A stretch of 41,887 nucleotides of DNA. Source: a virus (lineage: Duplodnaviria; Caudoviricetes). Position numbers and translations under genes: made by a program. The notes beneath the pieces are model-generated. The model had not been told where the DNA came from and ran no database searches. It was given only the letters and a program-made list of their open reading frames with translations. Shown here piece after piece: positions 3,655 through 19,242 of the stretch. The stretch's first letter is position 1, and each line of letters begins with the position of its first letter. The stretch lies in the IMG/VR virus record IMGVR_UViG_3300037047_000308, positions 1 to 41,887 of that record; one strand, 5' to 3'.

Positions 3655-3905
3655 CCGACCCGACCCTGAGCCACTTCAGCACCCTGGCCGGCGGCCTCTC
3701 CAGACGCAAGAAGGTCGCCATCGAAATTACCCTAAAGAATGAGCGGGTCCTCCAGGCCCTTTACGAACCGCTCTTCAAAACGATCACCCTTGGCGGCATG
3801 ACCTTCCCCGCCGCCGAATTATCCACCTGGACAAAACTCTGCTGGGGATCAGTCCCGCAGGGCATCGTCATAAAAAACCTACAAGGAGGTCCCATTCATG
3901 GTTAA
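3651..3905 (+). CDS. Hypothetical protein
   Basis: RBS GGAGGTGG, coupled to neighbours by overlaps. Confidence 0.65.
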   Translation: MTDPTLSHFSTLAGGLSRRKKVAIEITLKNERVLQALYEPLFKTITLGGMTFPAAELSTWTKLCWGSVPQGIVIKNLQGGPIHG

Positions 3906-6057
3906 GAAAATCCCGTTAGACGAACAGACTCAGACAATTCTCTCCTATATGTCTTTTTCCGACGGTCCCGATGGGTCCGTTATCGGCAAGATCATTTCCC
4001 AGCTCGACCGCAAGACTTACGAAAAGGTCAATAAGGCCCTCGTAGTCCTGGGCGGCAAATGGAACCGCAAGGCCGGAGGCCACATCTTTCCCACAGACCC
4101 CCGACCCCACGTCGAGGAAGCTATCGATGAAGGCACACTCACAGTGGAAAAGGACGGCTTCTTCCAGACCCCGCCCGAAATAGCTGCCCGCATGATCGCC
4201 CTTTGCGGTGACCTCACGGGCTTAAGTATCCTCGAACCCTCCGCCGGCCTCGGGGCCATAGCGGACCACCTTACCCAGGCCGAAGACGTCCTCTGCATCG
4301 AGAAGAATCCCGACCGGGCAGCGCTCCTCAGACAGCGCGGATACAACGTCCACCAGGTGGACTTCCTTGAATCCGGTCCCTTCTTTTCATGCTTCGACCG
4401 GATTATCATGAACCCGCCCTTCGAGGACGGCCAGGATATGGATCATGTCTGCCACGCATACACCATGCTTGTCCCCGGCGGGATCCTTGTTTCCATCATG
4501 AGTGAAGGCCCCTTTTTCCGGTCCGATCGCAAGGCTCAGGAATTCCGCAACTGGCTCGATGAAGTCGGCGGTTACTCTGACCCTCTTCCTGACAAATCAT
4601 TCCATGTAAGCGGTACCGATGTAAAAACCCGCATCGTAGTTATTCGCGCCCCATGGGCGACATCAAACAATAAAGGAGAAAGCATCATGAAGACAATCGT
4701 ACAGGCACAGGATTTAGGCAGTTTTTCAATTGAAGACGGCAGCAAGCTCAGCTTCAGGCAGGCTCTCAAAGAGAACGATCTCAACCCGAAAGAATGGCGT
4801 CTCGCCTCCACCTACGAGACCAAAACAACAATCACCTATACCGTGACCCGCAAGACCCCGGAGGCCGCACTCTCCCAGGCCGCCCCTCTATCTTCGGCCC
4901 CTGCTACCGATGTAATAGCCCCCACCGAAGCGGCAAATCCCACAGACCCGGCAAGCCCTGTTGATCCTGCACCCCCGCCGCCGGCACAGGCCCTTCTGAC
5001 GCTTCCCCGTAAGGACTTCGAGCAGGCTTTGAAGGTCGCCTGCGATTTTGCCGCGCCCAGGACAACACTTCCCATCCTCACCAATGTACACCTCGCTTCC
5101 GATGGCGCCACCCTCAATATTTACGCCACCGACCTGGAGTGCTACTGGACGCGGACTATACCCCTTTCCTCCGGCGTCCCGGTTGCCGCAGCCGTCTACG
5201 CCTCCATCCTCTACTCAGAGGTAAAGGCCCTCGAGACCGACGTTGTTCAGGTCCGGCTCGCAATCGACAATGAGGCACGCACGATCTCCGTGAATGGCCG
5301 GTGCTCCATCCACACCTCAGACCCGGAGGAATTTCCCGAACCCCCGGTTGTTTCCGGCCCGGAGTTCTCCATCCCTGATCTTCGCGGCAAACTGAAGGCG
5401 GTAGAACCGGCAATCAGCACCGACCAGACCCGCTACATGCTCACCGGTGCGCAAATCGACTTTGCCGGCGGCAAGATCGTCGCCACCGACGGCTTCAGGC
5501 TCCACCACCAGGATATCAAGCCGGTCACAGGCACTCTTCCTATTCTCCTTCCGCACCGCGCAGTCAAGCTCATTATCAAGCATGGCGGGGCCTCCACAAT
5601 CACTGTCGACGGGACCGATGAACGCAAGTATATAAACTATCCCCTCCAGGGAGGCGCCATGATCGCCCGGCTCCTCGAAGGCAACTACCCCGACTGGCGG
5701 AACGTCCTTCCGGAAGACAAGGACCTTCTTATTGGTGTAAAGTTTGACACAAAGGAATTCTTCAAGATCGTGGAGGGCGTCATCCCTATTGCGGGCGCCA
5801 AAAGCACCGTCTCCCTCACCGTCAACGGCAGTCTTTCCATCGAGACGGAAGGCGACTGCGGACGCTACCACTGGCAAATACCGTGTGATGTCACCGGCAA
5901 GGGAGATGAATCGTACACGCGCTTGTACAATCTCAAATACCTGACAGATGCGCTCAAATCATTCGCAGGCGACGGCCCGGCCCTTCTTGAATTCCCCGTT
6001 ACCTTTGGCGCTACCCGCGTCAACAGCAATGCGATCGTCATGCCCATCAGGGCGTAA
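3898..6057 (+). CDS. SAM-dependent amino-methyltransferase (N-terminal ~260 aa) in frame with a DNA polymerase III beta-clamp-like domain; internal start at 4687
   Basis: MTase motifs FFQTP, ILEPSAGLG, IIMNPPF; DnaN motifs TLPILTNV, ATDLE, AISTDQTRYMLTG, VATDGFRL, RLLEGNYPDW, YNLKYLTDAL, VMPIR; internal RBS AAAGGAG (4672-4678) + in-frame ATG 4687. Confidence 0.85.
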   Translation: MVKKIPLDEQTQTILSYMSFSDGPDGSVIGKIISQLDRKTYEKVNKALVVLGGKWNRKAGGHIFPTDPRPHVEEAIDEGTLTVEKDGFFQTPPEIAARMIALCGDLTGLSILEPSAGLGAIADHLTQAEDVLCIEKNPDRAALLRQRGYNVHQVDFLESGPFFSCFDRIIMNPPFEDGQDMDHVCHAYTMLVPGGILVSIMSEGPFFRSDRKAQEFRNWLDEVGGYSDPLPDKSFHVSGTDVKTRIVVIRAPWATSNNKGESIMKTIVQAQDLGSFSIEDGSKLSFRQALKENDLNPKEWRLASTYETKTTITYTVTRKTPEAALSQAAPLSSAPATDVIAPTEAANPTDPASPVDPAPPPPAQALLTLPRKDFEQALKVACDFAAPRTTLPILTNVHLASDGATLNIYATDLECYWTRTIPLSSGVPVAAAVYASILYSEVKALETDVVQVRLAIDNEARTISVNGRCSIHTSDPEEFPEPPVVSGPEFSIPDLRGKLKAVEPAISTDQTRYMLTGAQIDFAGGKIVATDGFRLHHQDIKPVTGTLPILLPHRAVKLIIKHGGASTITVDGTDERKYINYPLQGGAMIARLLEGNYPDWRNVLPEDKDLLIGVKFDTKEFFKIVEGVIPIAGAKSTVSLTVNGSLSIETEGDCGRYHWQIPCDVTGKGDESYTRLYNLKYLTDALKSFAGDGPALLEFPVTFGATRVNSNAIVMPIRA

Positions 6058-6066
6058 GGAGGCGGT

Positions 6067-6507
6067 ATGATATATACCTTTGGCTACATGATCGGCACCC
6101 TTCGCCAGACAGAACGGTTCATGGCAGCAAAAAAGGTTGACCTTCTCGTTGACCTTCGCTCAGCCCCCTATTCCCGAAGGCCCGACAAATACGAATTTAA
6201 CCGGAACAGCCTTCATATCGTCCTCAGGGATCGCTACCTGTGGAAGGGCGATGCTCTCGGCGGCAAACCGGGCCCGGCGACACCGGAAGGCATCGCCTGG
6301 CTTCTGGATCAGGAAAAGGCACGGCGTACGCTCCTCCTCATGTGCGTGGAAAGAGACCCTCTCCAGTGCCACCGGTTTCAGGATATCGGCCGTCGCCTCC
6401 TGGCCCAGGGGCTCGACATTATCCATCTTACCCAGCCATCGGATGCGCCGTTCGTGATCCCGAAGGCCACATCCCGGATACTCAAGGAAGGAGGCTTACT
6501 AGCATGA
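6067..6507 (+). CDS. DUF488 family protein
   Basis: IYTFGY, LVDLRSAPYSR, FNR, LGG, LMCVERDPLQCHR motifs; RBS AAGGAGG. Confidence 0.82.
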   Translation: MIYTFGYMIGTLRQTERFMAAKKVDLLVDLRSAPYSRRPDKYEFNRNSLHIVLRDRYLWKGDALGGKPGPATPEGIAWLLDQEKARRTLLLMCVERDPLQCHRFQDIGRRLLAQGLDIIHLTQPSDAPFVIPKATSRILKEGGLLA

Positions 6508-7367
6508 ACGATACCATCAAAAACATTCCCATGGAGCTGGTTTTCCCGAACCCGAACCAGCCCAGAAAAGACTTTGATCCTGAAAAGCTCGAAGAACTCG
6601 CTATGTCCATCAGACAATACGGTGTCCTCGAGCCCATCGTGGTCACCCCCCGCGACGCCCGTTACATGATCGTAGCAGGAGAGAGGCGTTATCGCGCCTC
6701 TCTCCTTTCCGGTACAGCCGAAATCCCCGCCCGTGTCATTGAGGCCGGCGATTCTCTCGTCGAAGAGCTGGCCCTCCTTGAAAACGTTCAACGGGAGGAC
6801 CTGAACATCATTGAGGAGGCCCGGGCCTACCAGGCCCTTCTCGACCGGGGATGGACCCGCGAAGAACTCGCCCGGAAAATGGGTTTCAAGCAGCTCTGGA
6901 GAATCGACGAACGGACGAACCTCCTGAACCTTGCACCGGAATATCAGCGGCTGGTAGCAGACGGTACGATCGGCCATTCCCAGGCCTTCGAAATGAGCCG
7001 GGTCGGCCCTACTCATCAGGCCCTTATCCTGAAGAAAATCCGTTCCGGCGAACTAGGAAGCTACAACAAGATACGCGCCTTTGTTGACGGCCTGATCGCT
7101 GCCCAACAGCAGGGGTGTATCTTCTCCTTTGAAACCATTACCCTTGAGGAGCGGAGCACCATCGACAACCTTGAATACCTTATCAGGTCAGTCGAGCGGT
7201 ACATCAATATCCTGGACGGCGACCGGGCGCAGGACCTCAAGAAGGCCGCCTTTCACTCCGCCGTCACGCCGGAACGCCTCGATCTCATCATTCAGCACCT
7301 CATGAAAATCCGCAAGCTCGTCCTTGCTGGCACCGGAGTCAAAACCGCAATCGAGACGGCAGCATAG
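6504..7367 (+). CDS. parB: ParB/RepB/Spo0J family protein (start reassigned to ATG 6504)
   Basis: PNPNQPRKDF, LAMSIRQYGVLEPIVV, IVAGERRYRA, LLENVQREDLN..EEA, HTH; RBS AAGGAGG and ATGA overlap with DUF488 stop. Confidence 0.9.
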   Translation: MNDTIKNIPMELVFPNPNQPRKDFDPEKLEELAMSIRQYGVLEPIVVTPRDARYMIVAGERRYRASLLSGTAEIPARVIEAGDSLVEELALLENVQREDLNIIEEARAYQALLDRGWTREELARKMGFKQLWRIDERTNLLNLAPEYQRLVADGTIGHSQAFEMSRVGPTHQALILKKIRSGELGSYNKIRAFVDGLIAAQQQGCIFSFETITLEERSTIDNLEYLIRSVERYINILDGDRAQDLKKAAFHSAVTPERLDLIIQHLMKIRKLVLAGTGVKTAIETAA

Positions 7368-7412: not shown

Positions 7413-7448
7413 GCCCTATAGGTCCATCCGACCCATAGGGCTTTTTTT
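7413..7448 (+). terminator. Intrinsic terminator of the accessory operon
   Basis: GCCCTAT-AGGTC..GACCC-ATAGGGC stem followed by T7. Confidence 0.8.
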
Positions 7449-7481
7449 ATGACGAGAGACAGTACGATGTTTTCGAGCTGC

Positions 7482-7517
7482 TCAGTATTTTCTGAAAGCA
7501 ATAATTTGCCGACTCAT
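7482..7517 (-). pseudogene. Divergent ORF stub MSRQIIAFRKY*, possible 5' remnant of an integron integrase
   Basis: Divergent from the attI-like site at 7731, where intI normally sits; shares a 17-bp exact match and peptide QIIAFRK with the stub at 10209-10238; identity as intI is inference only. Confidence 0.35.
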
Positions 7518-7672
7518 TCGTCAGTACCAGCTTTGGTAAGTCATACATTCATAGACTTCAATCGGTACTGAGGCATCGATACCATAAATAACGAACTTCA
7601 CTTTCTTGTAGTATTACCTACTAATTATGACAAACTTACACCAAGACTATTTGATTTCATTGTGTTTTTCTA

Positions 7673-7701
7673 TTGTCATTTACAGCACTTCAGAGTAGAC
7701 T
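7673..7701 (+). promoter_or_regulatory. Pc-like cassette promoter
   Basis: TTGTCA (7673-7678) - 17 bp - TAGACT (7696-7701), 30 bp upstream of the first cassette core site. Confidence 0.65.
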
Positions 7702-7713
7702 TTCATAAATACG

Positions 7714-7737
7714 AACTTCGTATATTAATTGTTATGT
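7714..7737 (+). other. attI-like site 1 (core G|TTATGT)
   Basis: GTTATGT (7731-7737) is 6/7 complementary to R'' ACACAAC of the first attC; 18/21 identical to the site at 10534-10554; not preceded by an attC hairpin. Confidence 0.6.
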
Positions 7738-7750
7738 GAAGGGAATAATT

Positions 7751-8164
7751 ATGAAAATGCGTCCTCACAATACTGAGCAAGCGGCCCGGGGTTTTGTAAT
7801 GTTTGAACTCGCCAGGCGTGGTTACAGCGTTCAACCGACCGACAGCAGATTCCCATCAGAGGATTTACTAGTGATTAGCCCCAACGGCAAACACTTCGGG
7901 ATTGATATCAAAGGCATGAGCACAAAAAACTTCTGGCAAGTTAAGGAACAAACGCCTTCTGATGAGACTTATTACGCCCTTGTATATGTTAAGCCGGAAG
8001 GACTCCCGGACGTGTATATTCTTGATAGTCACACCATGATGAAGCTTCACAAGGAGTATAAAGACAGGATTATAGCGAACGGCGGGAATGAAGATAATCG
8101 TTGGGGTGTATTATGGACGACGCCATTCCCCTACAAGGATAGATGGGACACTTTTCCGGAATGA
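7751..8164 (+). CDS. Cassette 1: small PD-(D/E)XK-like nuclease
   Basis: VMFELARRGYSV..EDLLVISPNGKHFGIDIKG pattern (D..D-x-K). Confidence 0.65.
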   Translation: MKMRPHNTEQAARGFVMFELARRGYSVQPTDSRFPSEDLLVISPNGKHFGIDIKGMSTKNFWQVKEQTPSDETYYALVYVKPEGLPDVYILDSHTMMKLHKEYKDRIIANGGNEDNRWGVLWTTPFPYKDRWDTFPE

Positions 8165-8185
8165 GGAGCCTGAAGGAAAACGGCC

Positions 8186-8248
8186 ACACAACCCATGGGT
8201 GCACCCAATCGGCCATAAAGCGGCCTCTGGGTGACGCTGCTGTTCGGT
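8186..8248 (+). other. attC site (63 bp)
   Basis: R'' ACACAAC, 5 bp, L'' GGTGCACC (extra G), stem GGCC/GGCC, L' GGTGACG, 5 bp, R' GTTCGGT. Confidence 0.82.
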
Positions 8249-8285
8249 CATGGATCATAAAATTTATATTGTGGAGGTGAGTTAA

Positions 8286-8678
8286 ATGGATTGCACTCAA
8301 CAAGCAATAAAAATTTATGAAGTATGCGTCAAGAATGCAAAGCTTAGTAAAAAGTTAACGTATCGTGATGTGCTTGACTATTTAGGGTATGGGGAACGTG
8401 TTCAAGGACATTCTATACGTTATGGTTTAGAGTTAGTCTGGATTGCTTGTGCTTATTCAAAATTGCCAATTTTAACTTCTATTATTGTAAATCAAGGAAC
8501 GGGGGCGCCCTCTGAAAGTGGCTATTCAGTTGCAGATTGGGAAAAAGACGCTCAAAAAGTATTTAAACAAAAAGAATGGCCACGCGTTGATGATATTGAT
8601 TGGAATTATGTTTATAAACATCGCGCGGAATTATCAAACATTCACAGCACCAGAGGCTACTGGAATAAAAAGAATTAA
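8286..8678 (+). CDS. Cassette 2: hypothetical protein, possible winged-helix-like domain
   Basis: RBS GGAGGTG; LTYRDV..LG and LPILTSIIVNQGTGAP pattern; AT-rich. Confidence 0.7.
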   Translation: MDCTQQAIKIYEVCVKNAKLSKKLTYRDVLDYLGYGERVQGHSIRYGLELVWIACAYSKLPILTSIIVNQGTGAPSESGYSVADWEKDAQKVFKQKEWPRVDDIDWNYVYKHRAELSNIHSTRGYWNKKN

Positions 8679-8681
8679 AAA

Positions 8682-8736
8682 ACCGAACAAGCCCATACAG
8701 CCGATCGCTTCGCTCCGGCTGATGTTGTCGTTGAAC
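8682..8736 (+). other. attC site (55 bp)
   Basis: R'' ACCGAAC (exact complement of GTTCGGT at 8242), 5 bp, L'' CATACAGC, L' GCTGATG, 5 bp, R' GTTGAAC. Confidence 0.88.
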
Positions 8737-8769
8737 ATTGAAGAATCGATGGAAGGAGGGTAGTCAGTA

Positions 8770-9324
8770 ATGGTGATTGAGAAAGACAAGATTAGAGTGA
8801 TATATGGAGAGCTTCAGGGCTATCTATCCCAGACACCAAAACCCAGTAGCCCGACAGATATCTTTGCAACCGACTCCTCTTGGCAAAGATACAACATAGC
8901 CGTTGGGGATTTGTCGAAGATCACCGGAGAGGACTTCGCACGCTTCCAGATACGACCAACCAGACAAAACAGATACGACATAGTCCACATAGAAGACTAC
9001 CGGCAAGCACTGAATGGCTTGATTAACACTCTCCATGCCTTGTATTTTGGGGACGAACCGCGACCCTTTGGTGGTTCTCCGACAACAGTTATCTCGCAAA
9101 CTCAATATCAGGTTCAGTCTATACAAATGCTCCTGGACTTCCAAAGCAAGATCGACAAAGCTTTGCAAAACGTTGAAGAAAACAGTACCAAAAAGAAATT
9201 TCTAGAAAAGATGAAAGGCAGTTTAAGCACCATAAAGAACGTAACCGAACTGTTCTCGCTTGTCCTTAAGCTGGCAAAAGAATACGGTCTCGGTTTGGGT
9301 GATCTGATATCGATATTCACGTAG
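8770..9324 (+). CDS. Cassette 3: hypothetical protein
   Basis: RBS GGAGG, 184-aa ORF directly after attC. Confidence 0.75.
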   Translation: MVIEKDKIRVIYGELQGYLSQTPKPSSPTDIFATDSSWQRYNIAVGDLSKITGEDFARFQIRPTRQNRYDIVHIEDYRQALNGLINTLHALYFGDEPRPFGGSPTTVISQTQYQVQSIQMLLDFQSKIDKALQNVEENSTKKKFLEKMKGSLSTIKNVTELFSLVLKLAKEYGLGLGDLISIFT

Positions 9325-9325
9325 T

Positions 9326-9348
9326 TCCGGGTTAGCTCCCCGTCATGT
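9326..9348 (+). other. Right-half attC remnant with mutated core (GTCATGT)
   Basis: TCCGGGTTA-N7-GTC has the same spacing as TCCGGGTTA-N7-GTT in the attC at 11108; GTCATGT approximates the complement of R'' GCATAAC at 10161. Confidence 0.5.
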
Positions 9349-9371
9349 TCTAAAAACAAGGAAAGTAGACG

Positions 9372-10157
9372 ATGGAAGTTCCCAGCGACGTATCCAAACT
9401 GATTAAAGGCAGTGGTAATAATTTCCACGCGAAAGTGGCCCGTTGGTTATCTAACGACGGCTGGCATGTTATCGTGAGTCCCTACTATATGGATCAGACC
9501 CAGAACAAAGCTCGTGAAATAGATATAATTGCCGAGAAGCTCTGGCCAGTAAAGAATTTATTCGGTCGGCATACGGAAGAAGTAGCCGTGCGACTGTTTA
9601 TTGAGTGCAAGTTTGTTACTTCATATTCAGTGTTTTGGTTCGCCGAGAAAGACGAGAAATCCTCTCTAGACCTTGTATGCAGTACTAGTCCTTTCCAAAA
9701 GAACAACTTATACACAGCGAAGCATCACTACTTGGCCGGAAATCCGAATGTTGCCAAGTTGTTCACGACGAGCGTGAGTAAGACCTCGGAAAACGAACCT
9801 TTCTACAAGGCACTGAACCAAGCGCTGAACGCCATGGTATCAATGCGTGGTCAGGCTATTTCAGTGCCAGCACTGAGGGAATCGCGAACGAGCCCAAAAG
9901 CGCTCATTGAATTCCCAGTCATCGTTTGCAGCTCATTCGAGAAGATGTTCGCTGTCGACTTCTATATCGACTCACAGCCGCAGTCAATAAAAGACAACTT
10001 CCAGCTCGAGGTGCGCTACGCCTATGTTGACAGATACAACAAACAGCGCAACGACTATTTCTTGCTTGATTTTGTCGAATTCAACCAGCTCAAGGAGTTT
10101 GCCAAAGCTATCAATGAGGATGCTAAGGCTGCCGCATATTTAGCGGCTCCAAATTAA
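9372..10157 (+). CDS. Cassette 4: PD-(D/E)XK restriction-endonuclease-like protein
   Basis: SGNNFHAKVARWL..YYMD..REIDIIA..LFIECK..IEFPVIV. Confidence 0.72.
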   Translation: MEVPSDVSKLIKGSGNNFHAKVARWLSNDGWHVIVSPYYMDQTQNKAREIDIIAEKLWPVKNLFGRHTEEVAVRLFIECKFVTSYSVFWFAEKDEKSSLDLVCSTSPFQKNNLYTAKHHYLAGNPNVAKLFTTSVSKTSENEPFYKALNQALNAMVSMRGQAISVPALRESRTSPKALIEFPVIVCSSFEKMFAVDFYIDSQPQSIKDNFQLEVRYAYVDRYNKQRNDYFLLDFVEFNQLKEFAKAINEDAKAAAYLAAPN

Positions 10158-10160
10158 GCA

Positions 10161-10209
10161 GCATAACAAACGGATGGGGACGACTAATTACAGTCGCGGT
10201 TCACCCCAT
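10161..10209 (+). other. Left-half attC (GCATAAC AAACG GATG..) interrupted by an ATGGGG..CCCCAT hairpin
   Basis: Canonical R'' 4 bp after the stop; no L'/R' at the expected spacing; inverted ends at 10174-10179 and 10204-10209 with inner CGACT/AGTCG stem. Confidence 0.55.
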
Positions 10210-10238
10210 TATTTCCTGAAAGCAATAATTTGTGCCAT
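10209..10238 (-). pseudogene. Divergent ORF stub MAQIIAFRK*, possible second integrase 5' remnant
   Basis: CTGAAAGCAATAATTTG at 10216-10232 identical to 7492-7508; same orientation relative to the second attI-like site. Confidence 0.35.
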
Positions 10239-10533
10239 ACTCAACTATTTTCATCTTGCAATCGAAACCAGGTTGGGGGATAATAAGCTTTGGGGGACGC
10301 TCAATGTTCTTTGAAGTGCATATCTTCGTGGGCATAAGGGCAAGAAACAGATCACAGAATACTATCACGCCACCCTTTAGAACCACCTCTGCCAGACATC
10401 CTTTAAAAAAGTATATTCCTTTTTTTGCACGTACTATCAGCAATTGTCATAAAAGAACATGTTCCTCTTAGTATATTGATAAGTTATGAGTGCTTTTGAT
10501 TTTATGATGTTAATGAGATCAGGAAAAATAGGC

Positions 10534-10557
10534 AACTTGGTATATTTATTTTTAGCA
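10534..10557 (+). other. attI-like site 2 (core T|TTAGCA)
   Basis: AACTTGGTATATTTATTTTTA 18/21 identical to site 1; TTAGCA (10552-10557) complements R'' TGCTAAC at 11108; the conserved G is replaced by T. Confidence 0.55.
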
Positions 10558-10570
10558 CAGGAGAATCGAA

Positions 10571-11113
10571 ATGAACGTTAACGGTATTCCTGCGAAGTTG
10601 TTCGATTCAATTGAAAAGGTTCTCCGATATATCGTTCCTGGGCTGCTATTCGTTCTTCTCGTAAAATCGTCATATTCACAAGCTACACTCAATCAGCTGA
10701 GCCCTAACATCTCTCAGACAGAGTTTTACTTTCTCTCTCCGGTTTTTGGCTTTGTAATCTATGTCATTCACAGAGTGATCTTCTGGCTGGTAGACTGCGT
10801 ATGCCGTTCGCGTCGCAATATGACTCTACTTGAGTCATTGCGTGGCCAGGCAATGCGAAAAGAAAAGTGTACTGAACTTACGGGAATCCTTTACTATCGT
10901 TGGGCACTGCTTCATTTTGGGCTAATACTTGCGGAATTGGTTCTTGTCTTCTCGCTGCTTTTGACCGAAAAGGGTACGGTCGTAGCATCGCACGCGGTCG
11001 CAATACCTATACTAGCAGTTGCGTTCTTTGTCCTTTGTTTCTGCTTCTACTGTCAGCTAAATATGGCGGATTTGGAGTCAATTAAGGAGTACACTAAAAA
11101 ATCAAGTTGCTAA
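10571..11113 (+). CDS. Cassette 5: membrane protein with about four hydrophobic segments
   Basis: RBS AGGAG; hydrophobic stretches YIVPGLLFVLLV, VFGFVIYVIHRVIFWLV, FGLILAELVLVFSLLL, IPILAVAFFVLCFCFY; stop lies inside attC R''. Confidence 0.8.
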   Translation: MNVNGIPAKLFDSIEKVLRYIVPGLLFVLLVKSSYSQATLNQLSPNISQTEFYFLSPVFGFVIYVIHRVIFWLVDCVCRSRRNMTLLESLRGQAMRKEKCTELTGILYYRWALLHFGLILAELVLVFSLLLTEKGTVVASHAVAIPILAVAFFVLCFCFYCQLNMADLESIKEYTKKSSC

Positions 11114-11173
11114 CAATCGCATGAACCCGATCGTGTCCCTGACGGGCCACTCCGGGTTATGTGTGCGTTCGCC
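11108..11173 (+). other. attC site (66 bp)
   Basis: R'' TGCTAAC, 5 bp, L'' CATGAACC, L' GGTTATG, 5 bp, R' GTTCGCC. Confidence 0.9.
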
Positions 11174-11190
11174 TGATCTCGGAGACCTTA

Positions 11191-12087
11191 ATGAAGAATA
11201 CCGACTGGCCCACCTCAGAAATCTTTCGAATCGCTCAAACATCGGGCAAGCCCCTCGAGGTCGTGTCCGCTGAGGCTTTCCTGGGAGCGGGATGGACCGC
11301 TCGACTCGGCTCGTATTATTCAGACGGTGCTCTTGACATTCCGCGTGAACTCGATGTCTTGGCTGAAAGAACAGTCGATCTCGATGTCGGTATCGGGTTG
11401 AAGCTTCGAGTTCGCGCGCTGGTCTCGTGTCGAGGATTTCCGGAAGAGCGATCCCCCGTCTTCTACTCAGTTTCTTCCGAGTCTGTCCCGAGTTTTGAGC
11501 CACGACTGTTCGTCGAGCACCGGGGGGCTTGGGCCGTTGATCCAACAGGTCTCTCATACGGATCTCTTACTACGCTCGAGCGCCGAGCTGCCGACCGCAC
11601 GCTTGAGCTCTGTGGCCTAACCGGCGCGCGGCCAGTCGCCGCCATGGACATGATCGAGCGCGCGGAGGGCGGTTCGAAGGCAAAGACTGGCGGCAAGCCG
11701 CAACCGTCCAACGTCACATACGCGCGGATGAAGGATGGTGATAGCACGTTGTTCAAAGCGGCCGATAGCGCGATTAAGGCCGCATTCTATTGGAAGCAGG
11801 AAGACTACCAGCGTGGGGGCGATTTCGCGGCCATCAATATTCCTGTGTGTGTCTTGAGCTGTCCGTTCTGGGATGTACCGATCGATCATGGAACCACTGG
11901 TCACCCAAAGATACGCGGTAAGGGCTATATGGTGAACTTGTATCCCGCGCGTCCTTTTGCAAAGGAACTCATGTGCTTGTTTTGGGCTGCGGACCAAGTG
12001 CCGTCGCTCGTGACCGCGCTTGATGAGTTGCTCTCCTGGTTCTCTGGTCAAATCAGGGATGCATACAGTGCATCAAAGCCGGGCTAA
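11191..12087 (+). CDS. Cassette 6: PD-(D/E)XK-like protein related to cassette 4, with non-canonical motif (start reassigned to ATG 11191)
   Basis: SGKPLE..YYSD..RELDVLA..ALVSCRG..INIPVCV; RBS GGAG; visibly more GC-rich than neighbours. Confidence 0.65.
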   Translation: MKNTDWPTSEIFRIAQTSGKPLEVVSAEAFLGAGWTARLGSYYSDGALDIPRELDVLAERTVDLDVGIGLKLRVRALVSCRGFPEERSPVFYSVSSESVPSFEPRLFVEHRGAWAVDPTGLSYGSLTTLERRAADRTLELCGLTGARPVAAMDMIERAEGGSKAKTGGKPQPSNVTYARMKDGDSTLFKAADSAIKAAFYWKQEDYQRGGDFAAINIPVCVLSCPFWDVPIDHGTTGHPKIRGKGYMVNLYPARPFAKELMCLFWAADQVPSLVTALDELLSWFSGQIRDAYSASKPG

Positions 12088-12144
12088 CCACGCCATGCAC
12101 CCGATCGCGCAAACGGCGCGCTCCGGGTGGTGGCCATGTTCGGT
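12082..12144 (+). other. attC site (63 bp)
   Basis: R'' GGCTAAC (contains stop), 5 bp, L'' CATGCACC, GCGC/GCGC stem, L' GGTGGTG, 5 bp, R' GTTCGGT. Confidence 0.9.
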
Positions 12145-12172
12145 ACAAAAGAAATGAAAGAGGAGGGTTAAA

Positions 12173-12901
12173 ATGTCATTAGCGTGGCATGAAGCTTTGG
12201 ACAAGGTGCGTCAATATGCTTTCAAGGTAATTACTCCCAACGGTTCTGGAACGGGTTTCGTTATTACCTACCAAGACAGCCCCGGCGTGTGCGGTCTTGC
12301 GACAGCCTACCACGTAATCGATCACGCGTATACTTGGGAGGAACCCATAAAAGTGCTTCATGCTCAAACAGGGAAAGAGGTTATTTTGCGGGCGCCTGAC
12401 AGGTATATCTTTACGAACCCCCAAAACGACGCTGCACTTGTCATGTTCATGCGTAATGATTTGGCCATAGAATGTAGTACGCTTCCGCTGATACCAGAAG
12501 ACAACTATCTGAAACCGGCAAATGAACTGGGTTGGGCGGGTTATCCTGTAATTGCTCCAAATGAATTCTCCTTCTTTAGCGGACACGTAAGCTGCTACCT
12601 AGCAAGAGAGAAGTCATATCTTGTCGACGGTGTGGCCATAAATGGTGTTAGCGGTGGTCCAGCTTTTACAATTTTCGGGGACGAAGTCCACATCGTTGGA
12701 ATTGTCTCTGCCTATATTCCAAACCGAATTACAGGCGAGAACCTCCCGGGCGTTTGTTATGTCAGCGGAGTTGATCCTTTTCATGAGTTTATGAAAGACA
12801 TCAATTCCCTTGAAGAAGCCCGGACAAAAGGTGAAGTTACGGAGCATGCAACATCTTCGGATATGGTGCCGACAACCGCTCAACGACCATCGGGCCGATA
12901 A
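12173..12901 (+). CDS. Cassette 7: trypsin-like serine protease
   Basis: GSGTGF, TAYHV (His), NDAALV (Asp), GYP, NGVSGGP (Ser), VGIVS; no signal peptide; RBS GAGGAGG. Confidence 0.88.
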   Translation: MSLAWHEALDKVRQYAFKVITPNGSGTGFVITYQDSPGVCGLATAYHVIDHAYTWEEPIKVLHAQTGKEVILRAPDRYIFTNPQNDAALVMFMRNDLAIECSTLPLIPEDNYLKPANELGWAGYPVIAPNEFSFFSGHVSCYLAREKSYLVDGVAINGVSGGPAFTIFGDEVHIVGIVSAYIPNRITGENLPGVCYVSGVDPFHEFMKDINSLEEARTKGEVTEHATSSDMVPTTAQRPSGR

Positions 12902-12948
12902 GCTTACCACCTCTAACGACATGGAGGGAAAGTTCCTAAAACAAGCAT

Positions 12949-13011
12949 CCCGAACGAGCCGCTACAGCCAATCGCCGATAAAGCCGGCTCTGGCTGAGCT
13001 TTTTGTTGGAC
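12949..13011 (+). other. attC site (63 bp)
   Basis: R'' CCCGAAC, 5 bp, L'' GCTACAGC, L' GCTGAGC, 5 bp, R' GTTGGAC. Confidence 0.88.
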
Positions 13012-13022
13012 TAGGAGCGTAA

Positions 13023-13973
13023 ATGATGAAATCATCTCACAAAGTGTTTTTTGCTATCCCTTTTGATTCAGCGACCAAGAATATGTATGAAAGCATTCGC
13101 CAGACAATAAGGGTAAAATTTCCTTCCGTTACGACCGTGATCGGCAATCAAGAAATAGGGCCTTCACAAAAATACTCTGACATTGCATCATTCAAAGCGC
13201 AAAACCAAGAACTTATGAGACAGTTTGTGCACCAAATTAGAAATGCTGACATCGTTATTGCAGATTTAACAAACAATAACCCAAATGTCCATGTTGAGCT
13301 TGGCATTGCCTTAGTGGAGAACAAGAATATATTACGAGTGACCGGCCGACCTGTTACAGAGTTAGGATTTGATGTTAGAGGATTAGAAGTACATCCGTAC
13401 AAAGACGAGGCTCAACTAACTGCAACCATAACGGATTATCTAACCCTTTTTTTTGAAATCAAGAAGCTCCCGATTTCAAATCACTTTCCCCAGTTGTATT
13501 TCAAAGAACCCGGTCTACTGGAGCTGAGAGCACTGGATAGAGGAATTGAACTTGATGTATACCCCAGCCGTCCAAATATCTTTAGAATAAGAGATGGCGC
13601 AATAAAAGTTGAATTTGAAATCCTTAAAGCAAGGAAACCGGAGGATTGGTTTGGTATATACTTAAGAGTAGGATCAAATATTGTCATCGGTAGCTATCTC
13701 GTGTATGTGCGTGAAAAAGGATCACTTGAAATTCTGTCATACCCTGAACGTCAGATTTTGAAAACCGCAGAAATTGGTCATTCAATATCAGGTAGACATA
13801 TTTTGACTGTAGAGATGGAGAATGATTACCTCGAAGCAAGTATAGCGAAAACACAACTGACAATTGACAATCTGTCTCATCAAATAGCAGGTCACATACA
13901 TCCAGCATCATTTTACGCTAACGTAAATATATACGCGTTTGAGATGATTAGTCGGGATACTATCGATTGGTAA
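13023..13973 (+). CDS. Cassette 8: nucleoside 2-deoxyribosyltransferase/TIR-like N-terminal domain plus beta-rich C-terminal domain
   Basis: KVFFAIPF..IRNADIVIADLTNNNPNVHVELGIA..FDV; RBS AGGAG; no downstream attC seen. Confidence 0.75.
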   Translation: MMKSSHKVFFAIPFDSATKNMYESIRQTIRVKFPSVTTVIGNQEIGPSQKYSDIASFKAQNQELMRQFVHQIRNADIVIADLTNNNPNVHVELGIALVENKNILRVTGRPVTELGFDVRGLEVHPYKDEAQLTATITDYLTLFFEIKKLPISNHFPQLYFKEPGLLELRALDRGIELDVYPSRPNIFRIRDGAIKVEFEILKARKPEDWFGIYLRVGSNIVIGSYLVYVREKGSLEILSYPERQILKTAEIGHSISGRHILTVEMENDYLEASIAKTQLTIDNLSHQIAGHIHPASFYANVNIYAFEMISRDTIDW

Positions 13974-14078
13974 ACATACGGGGTTGAGGGACGCCCATTA
14001 AATTTTCAAATTCTCAAAAACTCGTCTCCGACTCGTGACCCCGTTTTCACTTCCAAGTCAACAAACGCGATCGCCAAT

Positions 14079-14115
14079 AAATTGTGAAGCCATCTGCCAG
14101 ATCGCTTCACAATTT
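14079..14115. promoter_or_regulatory. 37-bp palindromic site upstream of the terminase operon (candidate late-promoter regulator site)
   Basis: AAATTGTGAAGC-CATCTG-C-CAGATC-GCTTCACAATTT; related copy at 19160-19190. Confidence 0.65.
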
Positions 14116-14132
14116 TGTGCTATGGCTATGCC

Positions 14133-15014
14133 ATGGCAGCCGAAATCACGCCCGATGTCATCAATGCAGCCCTCGTCTCTTCAGAAAGGATACAATACCG
14201 CAACCTTCTGGTCCTCCTTAACGACGGCAAGGTCCTGACCGATTCCCAGCAGAAGAAATACGACGCTTACCGCGCCAAATGCGAGAAATACGCCGCCGCC
14301 TTGGAGGCCTCCTCTTCTCCGAACTCCGAACTCTCTGCTCCGAACTCTGATTCGGCAGACGCCGAATCAGTAGGCATCCCTTCCGATCTCCGTGTAAGGC
14401 GACGGTATACCATGTCGCCGGAGGCTATTGCCCAGCGGAAGGCCGCTTCCAATTCCCCGGCCAAGGCAGCCGCCATGGAGGGCAACCGCAACGGCTGGAA
14501 ACACGGCCACTTTGCAAATAATTTCATCAACAAGCTGAAGCCCTGCCTGTCCACGTGCCCCAACTATCCCTGCTCCCTTGTTGAAAACGGCGAGGTCGAG
14601 CCGGGCGACGACTGTCTAGACAAGGCCGATATTATTAGTTTTTTCCGCTCCATCCATGCCGCGGTGCAGGACAAGAATTATGAATCCTTCAACGATCTTG
14701 CCTCTCTGCAGATCGCCAACACCATCAAGGTTGTAGAGATGCTCGTGGAGGACGTCATCCGCGACGGCACGGTGGTCAAGCGCGAACGCTATGATAAGGA
14801 CGGCCGTCTTTCCACCATCGAGTATGTCCCGCACCCCTCGCTTCTGGCCCTGCCCAAGCTCGTGGCCGACCTCGGCCTGAACCCCGCCGAGTTTCTCATT
14901 ACCCCGAGGTCCCTGAAACGTGCCGACTCCGAGGAATCGACCGCCAACACCCTGGCCGAAATGATGTCCCGTGCGGGCAGGGTCTTCAAAAAGCCCCAGC
15001 CTAAAGAGGAATAA
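14133..15014 (+). CDS. Terminase small subunit-like protein
   Basis: GNRNGWKHG motif, Cys cluster CLSTCPNYPC..C, position directly upstream of large terminase. Confidence 0.65.
   Translation: MAAEITPDVINAALVSSERIQYRNLLVLLNDGKVLTDSQQKKYDAYRAKCEKYAAALEASSSPNSELSAPNSDSADAESVGIPSDLRVRRRYTMSPEAIAQRKAASNSPAKAAAMEGNRNGWKHGHFANNFINKLKPCLSTCPNYPCSLVENGEVEPGDDCLDKADIISFFRSIHAAVQDKNYESFNDLASLQIANTIKVVEMLVEDVIRDGTVVKRERYDKDGRLSTIEYVPHPSLLALPKLVADLGLNPAEFLITPRSLKRADSEESTANTLAEMMSRAGRVFKKPQPKEE
14317..14351 (+). repeat. Heptamer tandem repeat (CTCCGAA-type) x5, in frame
   Basis: CTCCGAA CTCCGAA CTCTCTG CTCCGAA CTCTGAT. Confidence 0.8.
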
Positions 15015-17010: not shown

Positions 17011-19152
17011 ATGAACCTTTTCAGTCTTAATTTTCGCTGGCCGCTGACCCGCACGGCAAAGATATATCCGCCCACAAAACCTGAAGGCGGCGTCCAGCTC
17101 CGCTCCGTCGACGGCCAAGGGCCCTACACGAAATATTTTGCGAATTATATCCCCCGTAAGATTGACGGGCAGTTTTACGAGTTTCTCCGCGAGGCGATTC
17201 CCATAATGGACGCCGCCGTCAACCGCCTTGTCTCCCTTGACGGCCACCTCGAGGTGACAGGGGAAAACGAGGCTCTTGTAGAGGAGATCCAGGAATGGTT
17301 TTACAATGTGCCCGTCAACGATCTTCAGCGCGGCCTCCAGGCATTTCACCAGAACCTCACCGCCGAGGCATTCGAGCAGGGCTTTGCCCTCGGAGAATTT
17401 GTCACCGACCGGAAGCGCACGGACATCGTGCAGCTCCGCGTGGGAGACTCCAAATACATCAAATTCGCCCGCAACGCCTCGGGTTCTGAGGGGCAGTCAG
17501 GGCTCACCATCTATCAGAAGGGCGACAATGATCTTGAATGGCGTCCGCTGAATGCGCAGAACCTGATCTATTTTTCCATCAACAACGAGAACCAGAACCC
17601 CCACGGAACACCCCTTTTCCGCTCCTGCGAATTTGTGGCGAAGGTTCTCGCCACCATGCACAACAGTATTCTCAATGTGTGGGAGCGGTTCGGCGACCCC
17701 TCCTTTTCCATTATCTACAAGACGTCGCGCAAAGACGGCGACGACCTTACCGCCCGCAGGAACACCATCGCCGCCGAATTTGATGAGGCTATACGGGCGA
17801 AACGCGAAGGTAAATCCGCGGACTTCATCCGGGCCATCGACACAAATTCCGCGATAGACATCGCCGTTATCGGGGCGGATGGCCAGGTTCTGGAACTGGA
17901 GATTCCCGCCCGTCACATACTGGAGCAAATTGTCGGCAAATCAGGCCTACCGGCCTGGATGCTCGGCATCCAGTGGTCTACAACGCAGGGTCTCTCCGAC
18001 AATGAGGCCGAGATCCTCCTCGCCGACGTGGCCACCCGTCAGGCTGCCAAAATGCCATATTTTTATAATCTCATTCGCACGCTCCTGCTGCTCCGGGGCC
18101 GCACCTGGAAAAAAGGTGACTGGCGTCTCGAATGGGCACAGGTCAACCTCAAGGATGTTGTCAAACAGGCCCAGGCGAGGTTTCTTGATGCCCAGGCACA
18201 GCAGATGTCCTCCAACGCATCCTCCGGGATCCCGACGAAAGTCACCGGCGGAGGGCAAGGGAAAAGGGCCGCCGGACGATGGACGAGGGACGAGGGACGA
18301 AAAAGCGCGTACACCGGAGGAGTTGTCATTCCGGGCTTGACCCGGAATCCAGGGTTCGAAGGCGTTCACGGCATCAAAGAAGAGACACGTCCCGTCCCAT
18401 GGCCGGAACTCGACCGCATAGAAACCGCCTACGAAGACCGCCTCAAAACCAACTGGGCTTCCGTCCGGGACAAGGTTCTTATGGTTTTGAAACTCACCGA
18501 AGCCGGCAAACTGGCAAGCGTGCAGGGTGACGCTAAAGTCGATATTCCAACGGGCATCGAACCCTTTTCCTTCACCGACGAACAGATAGCGGCGATCATG
18601 AAGGCCATGCGTGATTTCACCGGCACATACAGGCCCGATGACCCCGACTCACCCGTCCGCTGGTACTACGGGCAGTCCTATTCCGCAGGACTGATTCAGG
18701 CAGCGAAGCTCATCGGGAAAGAACGTCCCATCCTGGATATCATCAAAAACGCGGAGATCTATGACGAGCTGTGCGACACCGGCTTCCAGCTGCTCAAGGA
18801 CGACGCCACGAGGTTGATTGTCCATCAGATCATTCCGGAGATGGAGGCGCAGATGCTGGCCGGCACGAACCCCCGTCATGTGGCAGCTAGATTAGACACT
18901 ATCTTTGGCGCCCAGAACAGCGACTGGGAGCGCCTGGCCCGCACTGAAATGACCATGGCAGCGGAATCGGCCAAGCTGGACGAATGGAAGGATTGGAAGG
19001 TCAGGCGCGTCGAATTTTTTCCCGCCCCCGACGGATGTACGATCTGCATCGCCCTGGCCGGAGAATATCCGATCGACACATGTCCGGTGCCAGGCCGCGA
19101 CACCCATCCCCGCTGCCGCTGCTCCATCCGCCCGGCGGCAAGCGAGACGTGA
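17011..19152 (+). CDS. Portal protein fused to a Mu gpF/SPP1 gp7-like head morphogenesis domain
   Basis: Follows terL; portal-like NPHGTPLF and GLPAWMLG; C-terminal RLARTEMT..DGCTIC..P..HPRCRCSI. Confidence 0.8.
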   Translation: MNLFSLNFRWPLTRTAKIYPPTKPEGGVQLRSVDGQGPYTKYFANYIPRKIDGQFYEFLREAIPIMDAAVNRLVSLDGHLEVTGENEALVEEIQEWFYNVPVNDLQRGLQAFHQNLTAEAFEQGFALGEFVTDRKRTDIVQLRVGDSKYIKFARNASGSEGQSGLTIYQKGDNDLEWRPLNAQNLIYFSINNENQNPHGTPLFRSCEFVAKVLATMHNSILNVWERFGDPSFSIIYKTSRKDGDDLTARRNTIAAEFDEAIRAKREGKSADFIRAIDTNSAIDIAVIGADGQVLELEIPARHILEQIVGKSGLPAWMLGIQWSTTQGLSDNEAEILLADVATRQAAKMPYFYNLIRTLLLLRGRTWKKGDWRLEWAQVNLKDVVKQAQARFLDAQAQQMSSNASSGIPTKVTGGGQGKRAAGRWTRDEGRKSAYTGGVVIPGLTRNPGFEGVHGIKEETRPVPWPELDRIETAYEDRLKTNWASVRDKVLMVLKLTEAGKLASVQGDAKVDIPTGIEPFSFTDEQIAAIMKAMRDFTGTYRPDDPDSPVRWYYGQSYSAGLIQAAKLIGKERPILDIIKNAEIYDELCDTGFQLLKDDATRLIVHQIIPEMEAQMLAGTNPRHVAARLDTIFGAQNSDWERLARTEMTMAAESAKLDEWKDWKVRRVEFFPAPDGCTICIALAGEYPIDTCPVPGRDTHPRCRCSIRPAASET
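18274..18301 (+). repeat. Heptamer tandem repeat GGACGAN x4, in frame
   Basis: GGACGAT GGACGAG GGACGAG GGACGAA. Confidence 0.85.
18325..18351. repeat. REP/RPE-like palindrome inside the portal gene
   Basis: GTCATTCCGGG-CTTGA-CCCGGAATCCA, same family as 7381-7406. Confidence 0.8.
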
Positions 19153-19159
19153 AAAATAA

Positions 19160-19190
19160 TGAAGCGATCTGCCAGACCACTTCACAATTT
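19160..19190. promoter_or_regulatory. Second copy of the palindromic site, upstream of the protease/capsid genes
   Basis: TGAAGCGATCTGCCAGACCACTTCACAATTT versus TGAAGCCATCTGCCAGATCGCTTCACAATTT at 14085-14115. Confidence 0.65.
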
Positions 19191-19242
19191 AGTGATAAGA
19201 CAACGGTTAAAACCGTTGAAAACACCGTAAACGGAGGACCTG

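Follow-up and report, generated by a model that had tools for sequence, protein, structure and literature searches.

The cassette array and its recombination sites

IMG/VR record IMGVR_UViG_3300037047_000308 (41,887 bp; here "the window", meaning the whole stretch analysed) is a provirus of the Caudoviricetes, ~65% complete as estimated by CheckV; its proteins also map to a 136,175-bp contig. Between a ParB-like gene, which ends at position 7367, and the gene that precedes the presumed terminase lies an array of integron cassettes, and across most of 7.5-14 kb the GC content drops from 55-58% to 39-47%. The array contains eight open reading frames (ORFs), five intact cassette recombination sites (attC), an attI/promoter module at its head (module A, 7489-7737) and a second, attI-like module in its interior (module B, 10207-10557), all given here on the plus strand. 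A sequence-only reading of the window had described the array as having no integrase, and this is borne out: a six-frame search of the 41.9-kb record, which includes at least 7 kb on each side of the array, gives no PF00589 match at E values up to 1.

The attC sites, which share one orientation and are spaced 0.5-2.4 kb apart, lie at 8186-8248, 8682-8736, 11108-11173, 12082-12144 and 12949-13011. All five show the geometry R''-5-L''(extra base)...L'-5-R', as the sequence-only reading had described, naming failure of an attC covariance model to match them as a refuting outcome. Such a model, trained on 21 attC from chromosomal arrays of likely host relatives and on no window sequence, matches each of them on the bottom strand, at 33.7, 53.8, 54, 35.5 and 53.7 bits, respectively (E 4e-10 to 2e-5, a rough calibration). 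Top-strand scores are just 11-14 bits for four of the five, and outside these sites the best score over the 41.9 kb is ~13 bits (13.2). The model is our own and differs from that of IntegronFinder; its training attC were picked by our geometry scan, which biases it to that geometry. Stem covariation within the training attC is evident, with 91% of cells paired vs 69% in shuffles. The third window site is 89% identical to an attC of genome G317. Additional candidates from a loose geometry scan of the window were rejected, since the covariance model gives them no support; the same scan overlooked three of the four attC of a related prophage locus (L061, described below), all of which the model recovered.

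Complementarity between the 5' core of a cassette and its own R'', the expected footprint of circular-cassette insertion, had also been reported, and it withstands a permutation test. The match is complete in cassette 2 (7/7) and reaches 6/7 in cassettes 1, 4, 5 and 6; in the core of cassette 4 the last six positions are exact and the G of GTT is replaced by T. At the four variable positions 17 of 20 comparisons match, a value reached by 2 of 120 permutations (mean 9.6), vs 6 of 20 in a control comparison of each core with the downstream R'. Direct evidence that cassette 2 is a unit that moves as an integron cassette comes from sequence comparison with G192, a genome of another phylum. Within the cassette 2 unit (~8242-8732), 472 of 491 nt (96%) are identical to a cassette in a chromosomal array of G192; the match begins and ends exactly at the GTT cores, and the neighbours differ on both sides. 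A search of 390 genomes from the class to which G003 (titled Thermodesulfovibrionales) belongs gave G192, whose array has four attC matches, as the one carrier of this cassette. Placement of the window cassettes by integron recombination is supported by these comparisons.

Other sites in the array are damaged. A possible attC 3' half with a GTC core (9325-9348) was recognized by eye; the covariance model misses it, and a short BLAST search gave no significant match. A degenerate attC at 10161-10220 (76-81% to host attC by BLAST, E 0.006-0.86) is not matched by the model either, and the last ORF, that of cassette 7, has no attC behind it. Non-canonical GTC/GAC cores instead of GTT/AAC, as seen in the window at 9342-9348, are also present in L061 (6791-6797 and 7611-7617) and in an attC of L172 (near 7436-7486). 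In cassette 3 of L061 the GTC core is exactly complementary to the GAC-containing R'' (7/7); therefore, the variant core appears to travel with the cassette.

attI modules and the absent integrase

Module A, at the head of the array, is an attI/promoter module of ~250 bp, of a type found in integrons of the Syntrophorhabdales. It comprises a likely stump of the intI start, a candidate cassette promoter (Pc-like, 7673-7701) and the attI core (7731-7737). Its identity is 81% across 257 bp with the second of the attI modules in a complete integron (G316:C2) and 84% across 151 bp with a module beside a broken intI (G319:C24). In the complete integron, a full IntI (409.8 bits, cut-off 265) is divergent from one module copy, and the second copy, 1.3 kb further, heads at least six attC; on G319:C24, the broken intI is divergent from another copy. 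Module A itself likely holds a decayed stump of the intI start, with a minus-strand ATG at 7585-7583 and ~30 nt of likeness at 7557-7585. This stump is visible as DNA only, and a proposal that the module encodes ~30 IntI codons was scaled back, since tblastn yields no protein match. A σ70-like Pc motif is present in 12 of 16 modules, and about half of them share a left end. Contigs of RNA run X4 extend over parts of the array and by themselves are unable to show transcription.

Module B is divergent: it sits on a long branch of the attI tree, contains no Pc-like motif and has a G-to-T change in its core (10551-10557). Its end aligns with the other attI modules, and its start forms, with that of module A, a 26-bp direct repeat of 92% identity (7483-7508 and 10207-10232). 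Because this second module, preceded by a degenerate attC, opens with a repeat of the module A start, the region, as its sequence reads, is two attI-headed blocks in tandem, partly decayed. A plus-strand stretch of 13 residues in module B that resembles IntI (E 0.014-0.16) was put down to chance. A suggestion that ends of RAYT-type (HUH) transposons lie at 13980-14050 and at the start of module B was also set aside; it rested on short motifs with no significant BLAST match, although transposase genes of this type do occur in host arrays. Genes that we take, from an N-terminal motif, to encode RAYT/IS200-like transposases (L189 14377-15406, L101, L107 and L114) lie inside or right behind attI-headed arrays, and one lies at attI itself.

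A host-type histidine kinase gene at 4-1800 in the window, which abuts the RadC gene, has its best named relatives in the Syntrophorhabdaceae; the order Syntrophorhabdales was therefore searched for attI modules. Window positions 7490-7740 were matched in 8 of 96 genomes of this order, 19 of which encode an IntI above the cut-off, and the core of the module in 15 of 251 genomes of another class. Most of the 12 regions fetched consist of a module and attC without intI, beside housekeeping genes; one (G317:C43) resembles the G319:C24 locus minus its intI. These regions could belong to an integron system scattered over chromosomal sites, with a single IntI perhaps serving it in trans. Among G316, G317, G319, G308 and G268 (L141-L152) and the class of G003 (L100-L118), many intI-less attI modules with cassettes occupy ordinary chromosomal sites, with up to five matches per genome and several with one common left end. 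An unusual layout is found in L088 (118-1430), where the gene for IntI shares the strand of the attI motif and begins immediately after its left half; the usual layout is divergent. Among viruses, the exact attI core had no match in viral contigs, and module A had none in 50,697 GenBank phages. A degenerate attI pattern retrieved five AT-rich phage contigs, which lack attC matches and were rejected as chance.

The variable slot, its relatives and its cargo

Queries with the terminase returned 86 loci, some of them duplicates. A close relative, L061, matches the window at 93% identity from position 13980 onward. The right border of the variable slot (13980-14078, no strand assigned) is 95% identical to L061 8983-9076; besides L061, there is no significant match at that point in the other relatives checked. 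A cos site at 13980 was also considered; the other relatives checked lack the segment. In the same slot, L061 contains an attI module and four attC, and its cassettes are unrelated to those of the window; the first strongly matches HEC-05/GmrSD_N. On its left side, no ParB operon is present within the 10 kb examined. A third prophage of the family, in G002, has an attI-like site, two attC and two cassettes between a Xer-like recombinase gene and the accessory operon, on the opposite strand and with a core that matches at 7/7. For the prophage of G001, a complete chromosome, the gene order (names partly by eye) is integrase, repressor, primase, Xer-like recombinase, accessory operon, terminase small subunit (terS), head, tail and tRNA, and the Xer-like gene lies upstream of the accessory operon in three of five viral records tested. 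This gene order, together with the place of the Xer-like gene, therefore supports a ParB-terminase slot that is internal in the phage family. The sequence-only reading had raised the possibility of a prophage end near 13980-14080; in relatives (G001) the slot is internal, and the early genes of the window prophage are outside the view.

The attI modules point to a history different from that of the phage backbone. Those of the window and L061 are 71% alike, vs 95% for the border and 93% for terS (93-95% for the adjacent backbone). The nearest chromosomal copy to the window module is the internal one of G316 (84%), and the L061 module is nearest to a G319 copy (83%); the longer module of L061 is also 83% identical over 596 bp to the internal G316 module. 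In both attI trees, from which L147 was omitted and whose support values are rough, the two modules fall in separate groups. With modules only 71% alike on a backbone of 93-95%, and a chromosomal copy nearer to each than the other prophage's module, the data are better explained by repeated capture from hosts than by a single inherited phage attI. The earlier picture of a reprogrammable hotspot, to be checked by comparing the locus among related prophages, holds in one respect, since different cassettes do occupy the slot in L061, and is not supported in another, that of a single phage attI.

The ParB-like gene (6504-7367, plus strand; Pfam ParB_N, 2e-28) is the final gene of the phage accessory operon, whose order is RadC, DUF3560, methylase/beta-clamp fusion, DUF488 and ParB. 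To the right of the border, an inverted repeat at 14079-14115 (no strand assigned) is predicted to be a likely late-gene promoter/operator; it has a second copy at 19154, and a motif related to it by eye lies upstream of terS in L002, L007, L017, L046, L050 and L051. The presumed terS follows at 14127-15014 on the plus strand; it is the first gene of the head module, is 92% identical in amino acids to its L061 counterpart and precedes the presumed large-subunit gene (terL) and the portal gene. The place originally given for the array, between the accessory operon and the terminase, is correct. The label "terminase" is inferred from the position before the portal gene, a Walker-A-like stretch seen by eye and a weak homologue match (a single Terminase_6N match, E 0.0066, in one of nine proteins tested); the window protein has no Pfam or PHROGs match and nothing credible in PDB.

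Several side observations concern these neighbours. The third gene of the operon (3898-6057) encodes a 719-aa protein in which a DNA methylase-like domain is fused to a DNA polymerase beta-clamp domain; the same fusion is present in L017 at 72%, and other relatives have shorter forms. A second variable slot, at 19137-19197 between the portal and protease genes, contains two additional minus-strand genes in L061 (14101-17012); loose ends occur at 19137 in sequencing runs X1 and X2, and the inverted repeat found upstream of terS recurs there (19154). In the G002 prophage (L051 2021-7660), a reductive dehalogenase gene (TIGR02486, above cut-off) and a GntR regulator gene lie between the accessory operon and terS. 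Distant relatives have attC-like sites among small phage genes (L034 8472-8559, the same as L054 and L078; L033 412-500; L028 8236-8292), which score on the strand opposite to the usual one; that of L034 lies between the Xer-like gene and terS. In another relative, L008 (1401-2859), four attC-like matches (20-31 bits) lie among short genes upstream of the primase-sized gene. Defence-type genes also occur upstream of terS in L061 (327-3498), L050 (154-3329), L058 (856-8754) and L059 (8302-8955); they include DUF262 with a split HEPN gene, MADS-like genes, a type III restriction-like set and a TIR protein.

The eight cassette ORFs encode small proteins, some with recognizable folds or domains. 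Cassette 1 (7751-8164, 137 aa) encodes a predicted PD-(D/E)XK nuclease: its AlphaFold model (predicted local distance difference test, pLDDT, 92.8) has its best Foldseek matches in I-Ssp6803I, Hjc and PvuII (best E 2e-3, none at or below 1e-3), and residues E9, D38 and K54 are conserved; a profile run against PDB sequences found nothing. The product of cassette 2 (8286-8678, 130 aa) lies outside known families. That of cassette 3a (8770-9324, 184 aa) is unassigned to a family; a homologue search gave 32 proteins including the query, all annotated just as "hypothetical", and a comparison with plasmids gave no match. Cassette 3b (9372-10157, 261 aa) encodes a likely PD-(D/E)XK nuclease, as judged from Pfam XisH (E 0.0015, below the cut-off) and a motif seen by eye. 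Cassettes 3a and 3b are likely fused. Cassette 4 (10571-11113, 180 aa) encodes a protein that is hydrophobic by eye and is likely a membrane protein, for which family searches gave no match. The product of cassette 5 (11191-12087, 298 aa) has a possible restriction-nuclease fold; its best ESM Atlas matches are unnamed, and the NERD/Mrr_cat clusters are at template modeling (TM) scores of 0.34-0.45, below the bar of the tool. Cassette 6 (12173-12901, 242 aa) encodes a trypsin-like protease (Pfam Trypsin_2, 8e-5; PADLOC, N-terminal part of LmuA, 2e-9), and cassette 7 (13023-13973, 316 aa) a protein with a nucleoside-deoxyribosyltransferase/TIR-like N-terminal domain (Pfam Nuc_deoxyrib_tr, 7e-5; PADLOC TIR effector, 5e-7). 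For the latter, the single-sequence fold was unusable (pLDDT 38), and a broader search for homologues gave no further clue to its role. None of the eight is matched by an NCBIfam model. The description of the genes as "defence-like" thus applies to about five of the eight by weak fold or domain evidence. The PADLOC search that had been suggested gave partial matches below 1e-6 in two of the eight and no full system. From the domain types, and from preprints on integron defence cassettes (cited below), a defence role for the cassettes is plausible.

Origin of the array and comparison with known systems

The explanation that we consider reasonably probable is that the variable slot of this prophage, between the accessory operon and the packaging genes, is occupied by a cassette array that has a host-type attI and no integrase and that was likely taken up in one block from a host integron. 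A host IntI would have assembled the array one cassette at a time. The attI-plus-promoter module and its cassettes would then have entered the prophage slot, twice in tandem in the window and separately in two relatives. A hint that entry proceeded via recombination at the left end of the module comes from the 26-bp repeat; recombination of attI-bounded units is described for class 1 integrons in the accessible text of PMC12901181. In the lysogen, the Pc-like promoter would drive the first cassettes, and present-day gain or loss of cassettes would depend on IntI supplied in trans by the host. Cargo of nuclease-, protease- and TIR-like type would guard the lysogen from other phages, and it is proposed that such blocks are retained in the slot because of this protection.

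Several findings weigh against this explanation. The mutated core of module B, the two damaged attC and the last cassette without attC suggest decay. The trait is patchy: in nine related loci a ParB homologue lies shortly upstream of terS, and none has an attC match. The attI trees are built on 150-260 bp, and many of their forks are weak. A host-type kinase stands in the window where early genes would be expected, the early genes being outside the view. Finally, by PADLOC and other profile searches, no cassette ORF qualifies as a known complete defence system. A bolder version of capture from the host is put forward tentatively, as a possibility that we regard as rather doubtful: the attI-plus-promoter module of the host would be a short element, mobile and constant at its left end, that is repeatedly captured as a dock ahead of the packaging genes; refilled by host IntI and carried in virions, it would let the phage shuttle defence cassettes between integrons of different phyla, as the 96% match of cassette 2 in G192 might reflect.

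It is unlikely, in our judgement, that the prophage is instead a cryptic, decaying one, with a left arm lost or split by host DNA, in which an ordinary orphan-attI array landed and was never packaged. The prophage may be cryptic, given that the provirus is only ~65% complete, that the record encodes no recombinase, and that the kinase abutting the operon is of host type, with many paralogues in G317. This kinase may be prophage cargo, comparable to the reductive dehalogenase and regulator of the G002 prophage, or it may mark the loss of the left arm. The 13980 border of L061 is preceded by the end of a gene and a terminator that we read as host-like; the G002 prophage is truncated after the portal region, and host-like metabolic genes are present in the region. 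Orphan attI arrays are, moreover, common at ordinary chromosomal sites of these hosts, and in run X1 the kinase and terminase contigs are of equal depth (119.5 and 122.9), with no sign of extra phage copies, although depth is a poor measure of this. However, each head gene is of full length and can be aligned from end to end with its counterparts in L061 and the complete G001, the slot is internal in intact relatives, and arrays in one region of three same-family prophages are poorly explained by chance landing.

Somewhat less likely again is a phage lineage that owns one inherited attI dock, which host IntI reloads in place, so that relatives differ only in their cassettes. An attI in the same slot and the common 13980 border in the window and L061 are consistent with it, as are some observations from natural populations. 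Three sequencing runs, from groundwater and coal metagenomes, contain more than half of the sampled words of the region, and X1 may be where the record came from (the small-share runs X7-X16 were excluded from the habitat evidence). In X2 the array has a depth of 22.5-fold and its flanks 70-120, with variant letters; a 47-fold contig departs from the window at 7497, the start of module A, and a 91-nt attI contig with two differences runs up to the core, beyond which a loose end continues in other sequence. In both X1 and X2, a second strain seems to join a module-B-like segment and attC-like sequence to 13985, the joint having a depth of 38.9 in X2 and 22.2 in X1; in X1 the latter and the array (100.6) sum to the depth of the terminase contig (122.9). 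Another joint, from ParB to 13981, has a depth of 21.7. These data suggest, weakly, that co-occurring strains differ in slot content. However, most of the joints have 20-28 letters on the short side and are flagged as often coming from other organisms or repeats, and the parts that they skip are unseen. Hosts with several attI copies could also yield differing first cassettes that are not necessarily linked to the phage. The one-dock alternative is further opposed by the divergence of the modules relative to the backbone and by the closer chromosomal copies of each, as described above. Lastly, loading of cassettes by the Xer-like recombinase of the phage, a tyrosine recombinase that the family encodes upstream of the region, is very improbable, since its score with the integron-integrase model is 50-76 bits (cut-off 265), both kinds of site, attI and attC, are the ones found in host integrons that have a true IntI, most relatives with the gene have no array, and the gene is absent from the window record.

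Capture of host attI blocks would bear on how prophage defence hotspots are refilled, a process that has mostly been guessed at so far; integron recombination is a named mechanism, here in view, and the relatives show that the slot has been refilled more than once. Transfer of cassettes between hosts, as the sequence-only reading proposed, would depend on a working phage; if this one is functional, it would offer a plasmid-free route by which cassettes from sedentary chromosomal arrays could pass across hosts. In addition, the many integrase-less attI modules of the Syntrophorhabdales allow a direct test of how attC clusters that have no integron-integrase (CALINs) originate and of whether one IntI serves many docks in trans.

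The view that integron arrays in phage genomes are rarely described is not supported. Qi et al. 2023 (PMC9892861), in the text available, report 3 phage-borne complete integrons along with 17 arrays that lack an integrase, including a prophage array with attI at its head. This attI-headed CALIN, of Shewanella prophage M16-3, has tail, capsid and terminase genes on its flanks, and pieces of chromosomal integrons have been captured by Vibrio prophages (PMC9892861). Like these phage CALINs, the window array has at least two attC, no intI nearby and a place inside a phage. Those described in that text are in single phages, whereas in the window family three prophages have different arrays in one region, the attI modules trace to different chromosomal copies, and the hosts are likely anaerobic Syntrophorhabdales. 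In the literature searched, which included few subscription papers and not the supplementary list of 17 CALINs of Qi et al., there was no report of repeated attI capture at one prophage slot. Phage CALINs, including an attI-headed one near terminase genes, are thus already known; the element that those searches did not turn up would be the repeated uptake of attI modules from hosts, in a single region, by one phage family.

The window array also agrees with the definition of a CALIN by Cury et al. 2016 (PMC4889954), at least two attC with no integrase nearby; as far as that source was available, it suggests that CALINs can be mobilized by an integrase encoded elsewhere and arise by loss of intI or by rearrangement. 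Unlike the CALINs of that text, the window array keeps an attI and a Pc-like promoter, has its attI-headed blocks twice in tandem and lies inside a prophage. Compared with a complete integron, it has no intI beside attI but only the DNA-level stump; a site that is attI by homology does head the array, and its cassettes appear to move as core-bounded units (cassette 2 in G192; 17 of 20 positions).

As a locus, the slot resembles the cos-proximal hotspots of P2/P4 phages (Rousset et al. 2022, PMC9122126), which are variable, defence-rich and situated right before the packaging genes of temperate phages; the window slot is likewise a variable locus between conserved phage genes, adjoining the packaging module. 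For the P2/P4 hotspots, exchange via cos ends and homologous recombination was proposed and defence was tested, and the word "integron" is absent from the main text; in contrast, the window cargo is known from sequence alone, and no cos site was identified. Chromosomal and plasmid integron cassettes with tested anti-phage activity are described in two preprints (bioRxiv 10.1101/2024.07.02.601686 and 10.1101/2024.07.02.601719), as far as their available text goes. Although none of the window cassettes was matched to a system tested there, they share with those cassettes a small, single-gene form and nuclease-, protease- and TIR-like domains.

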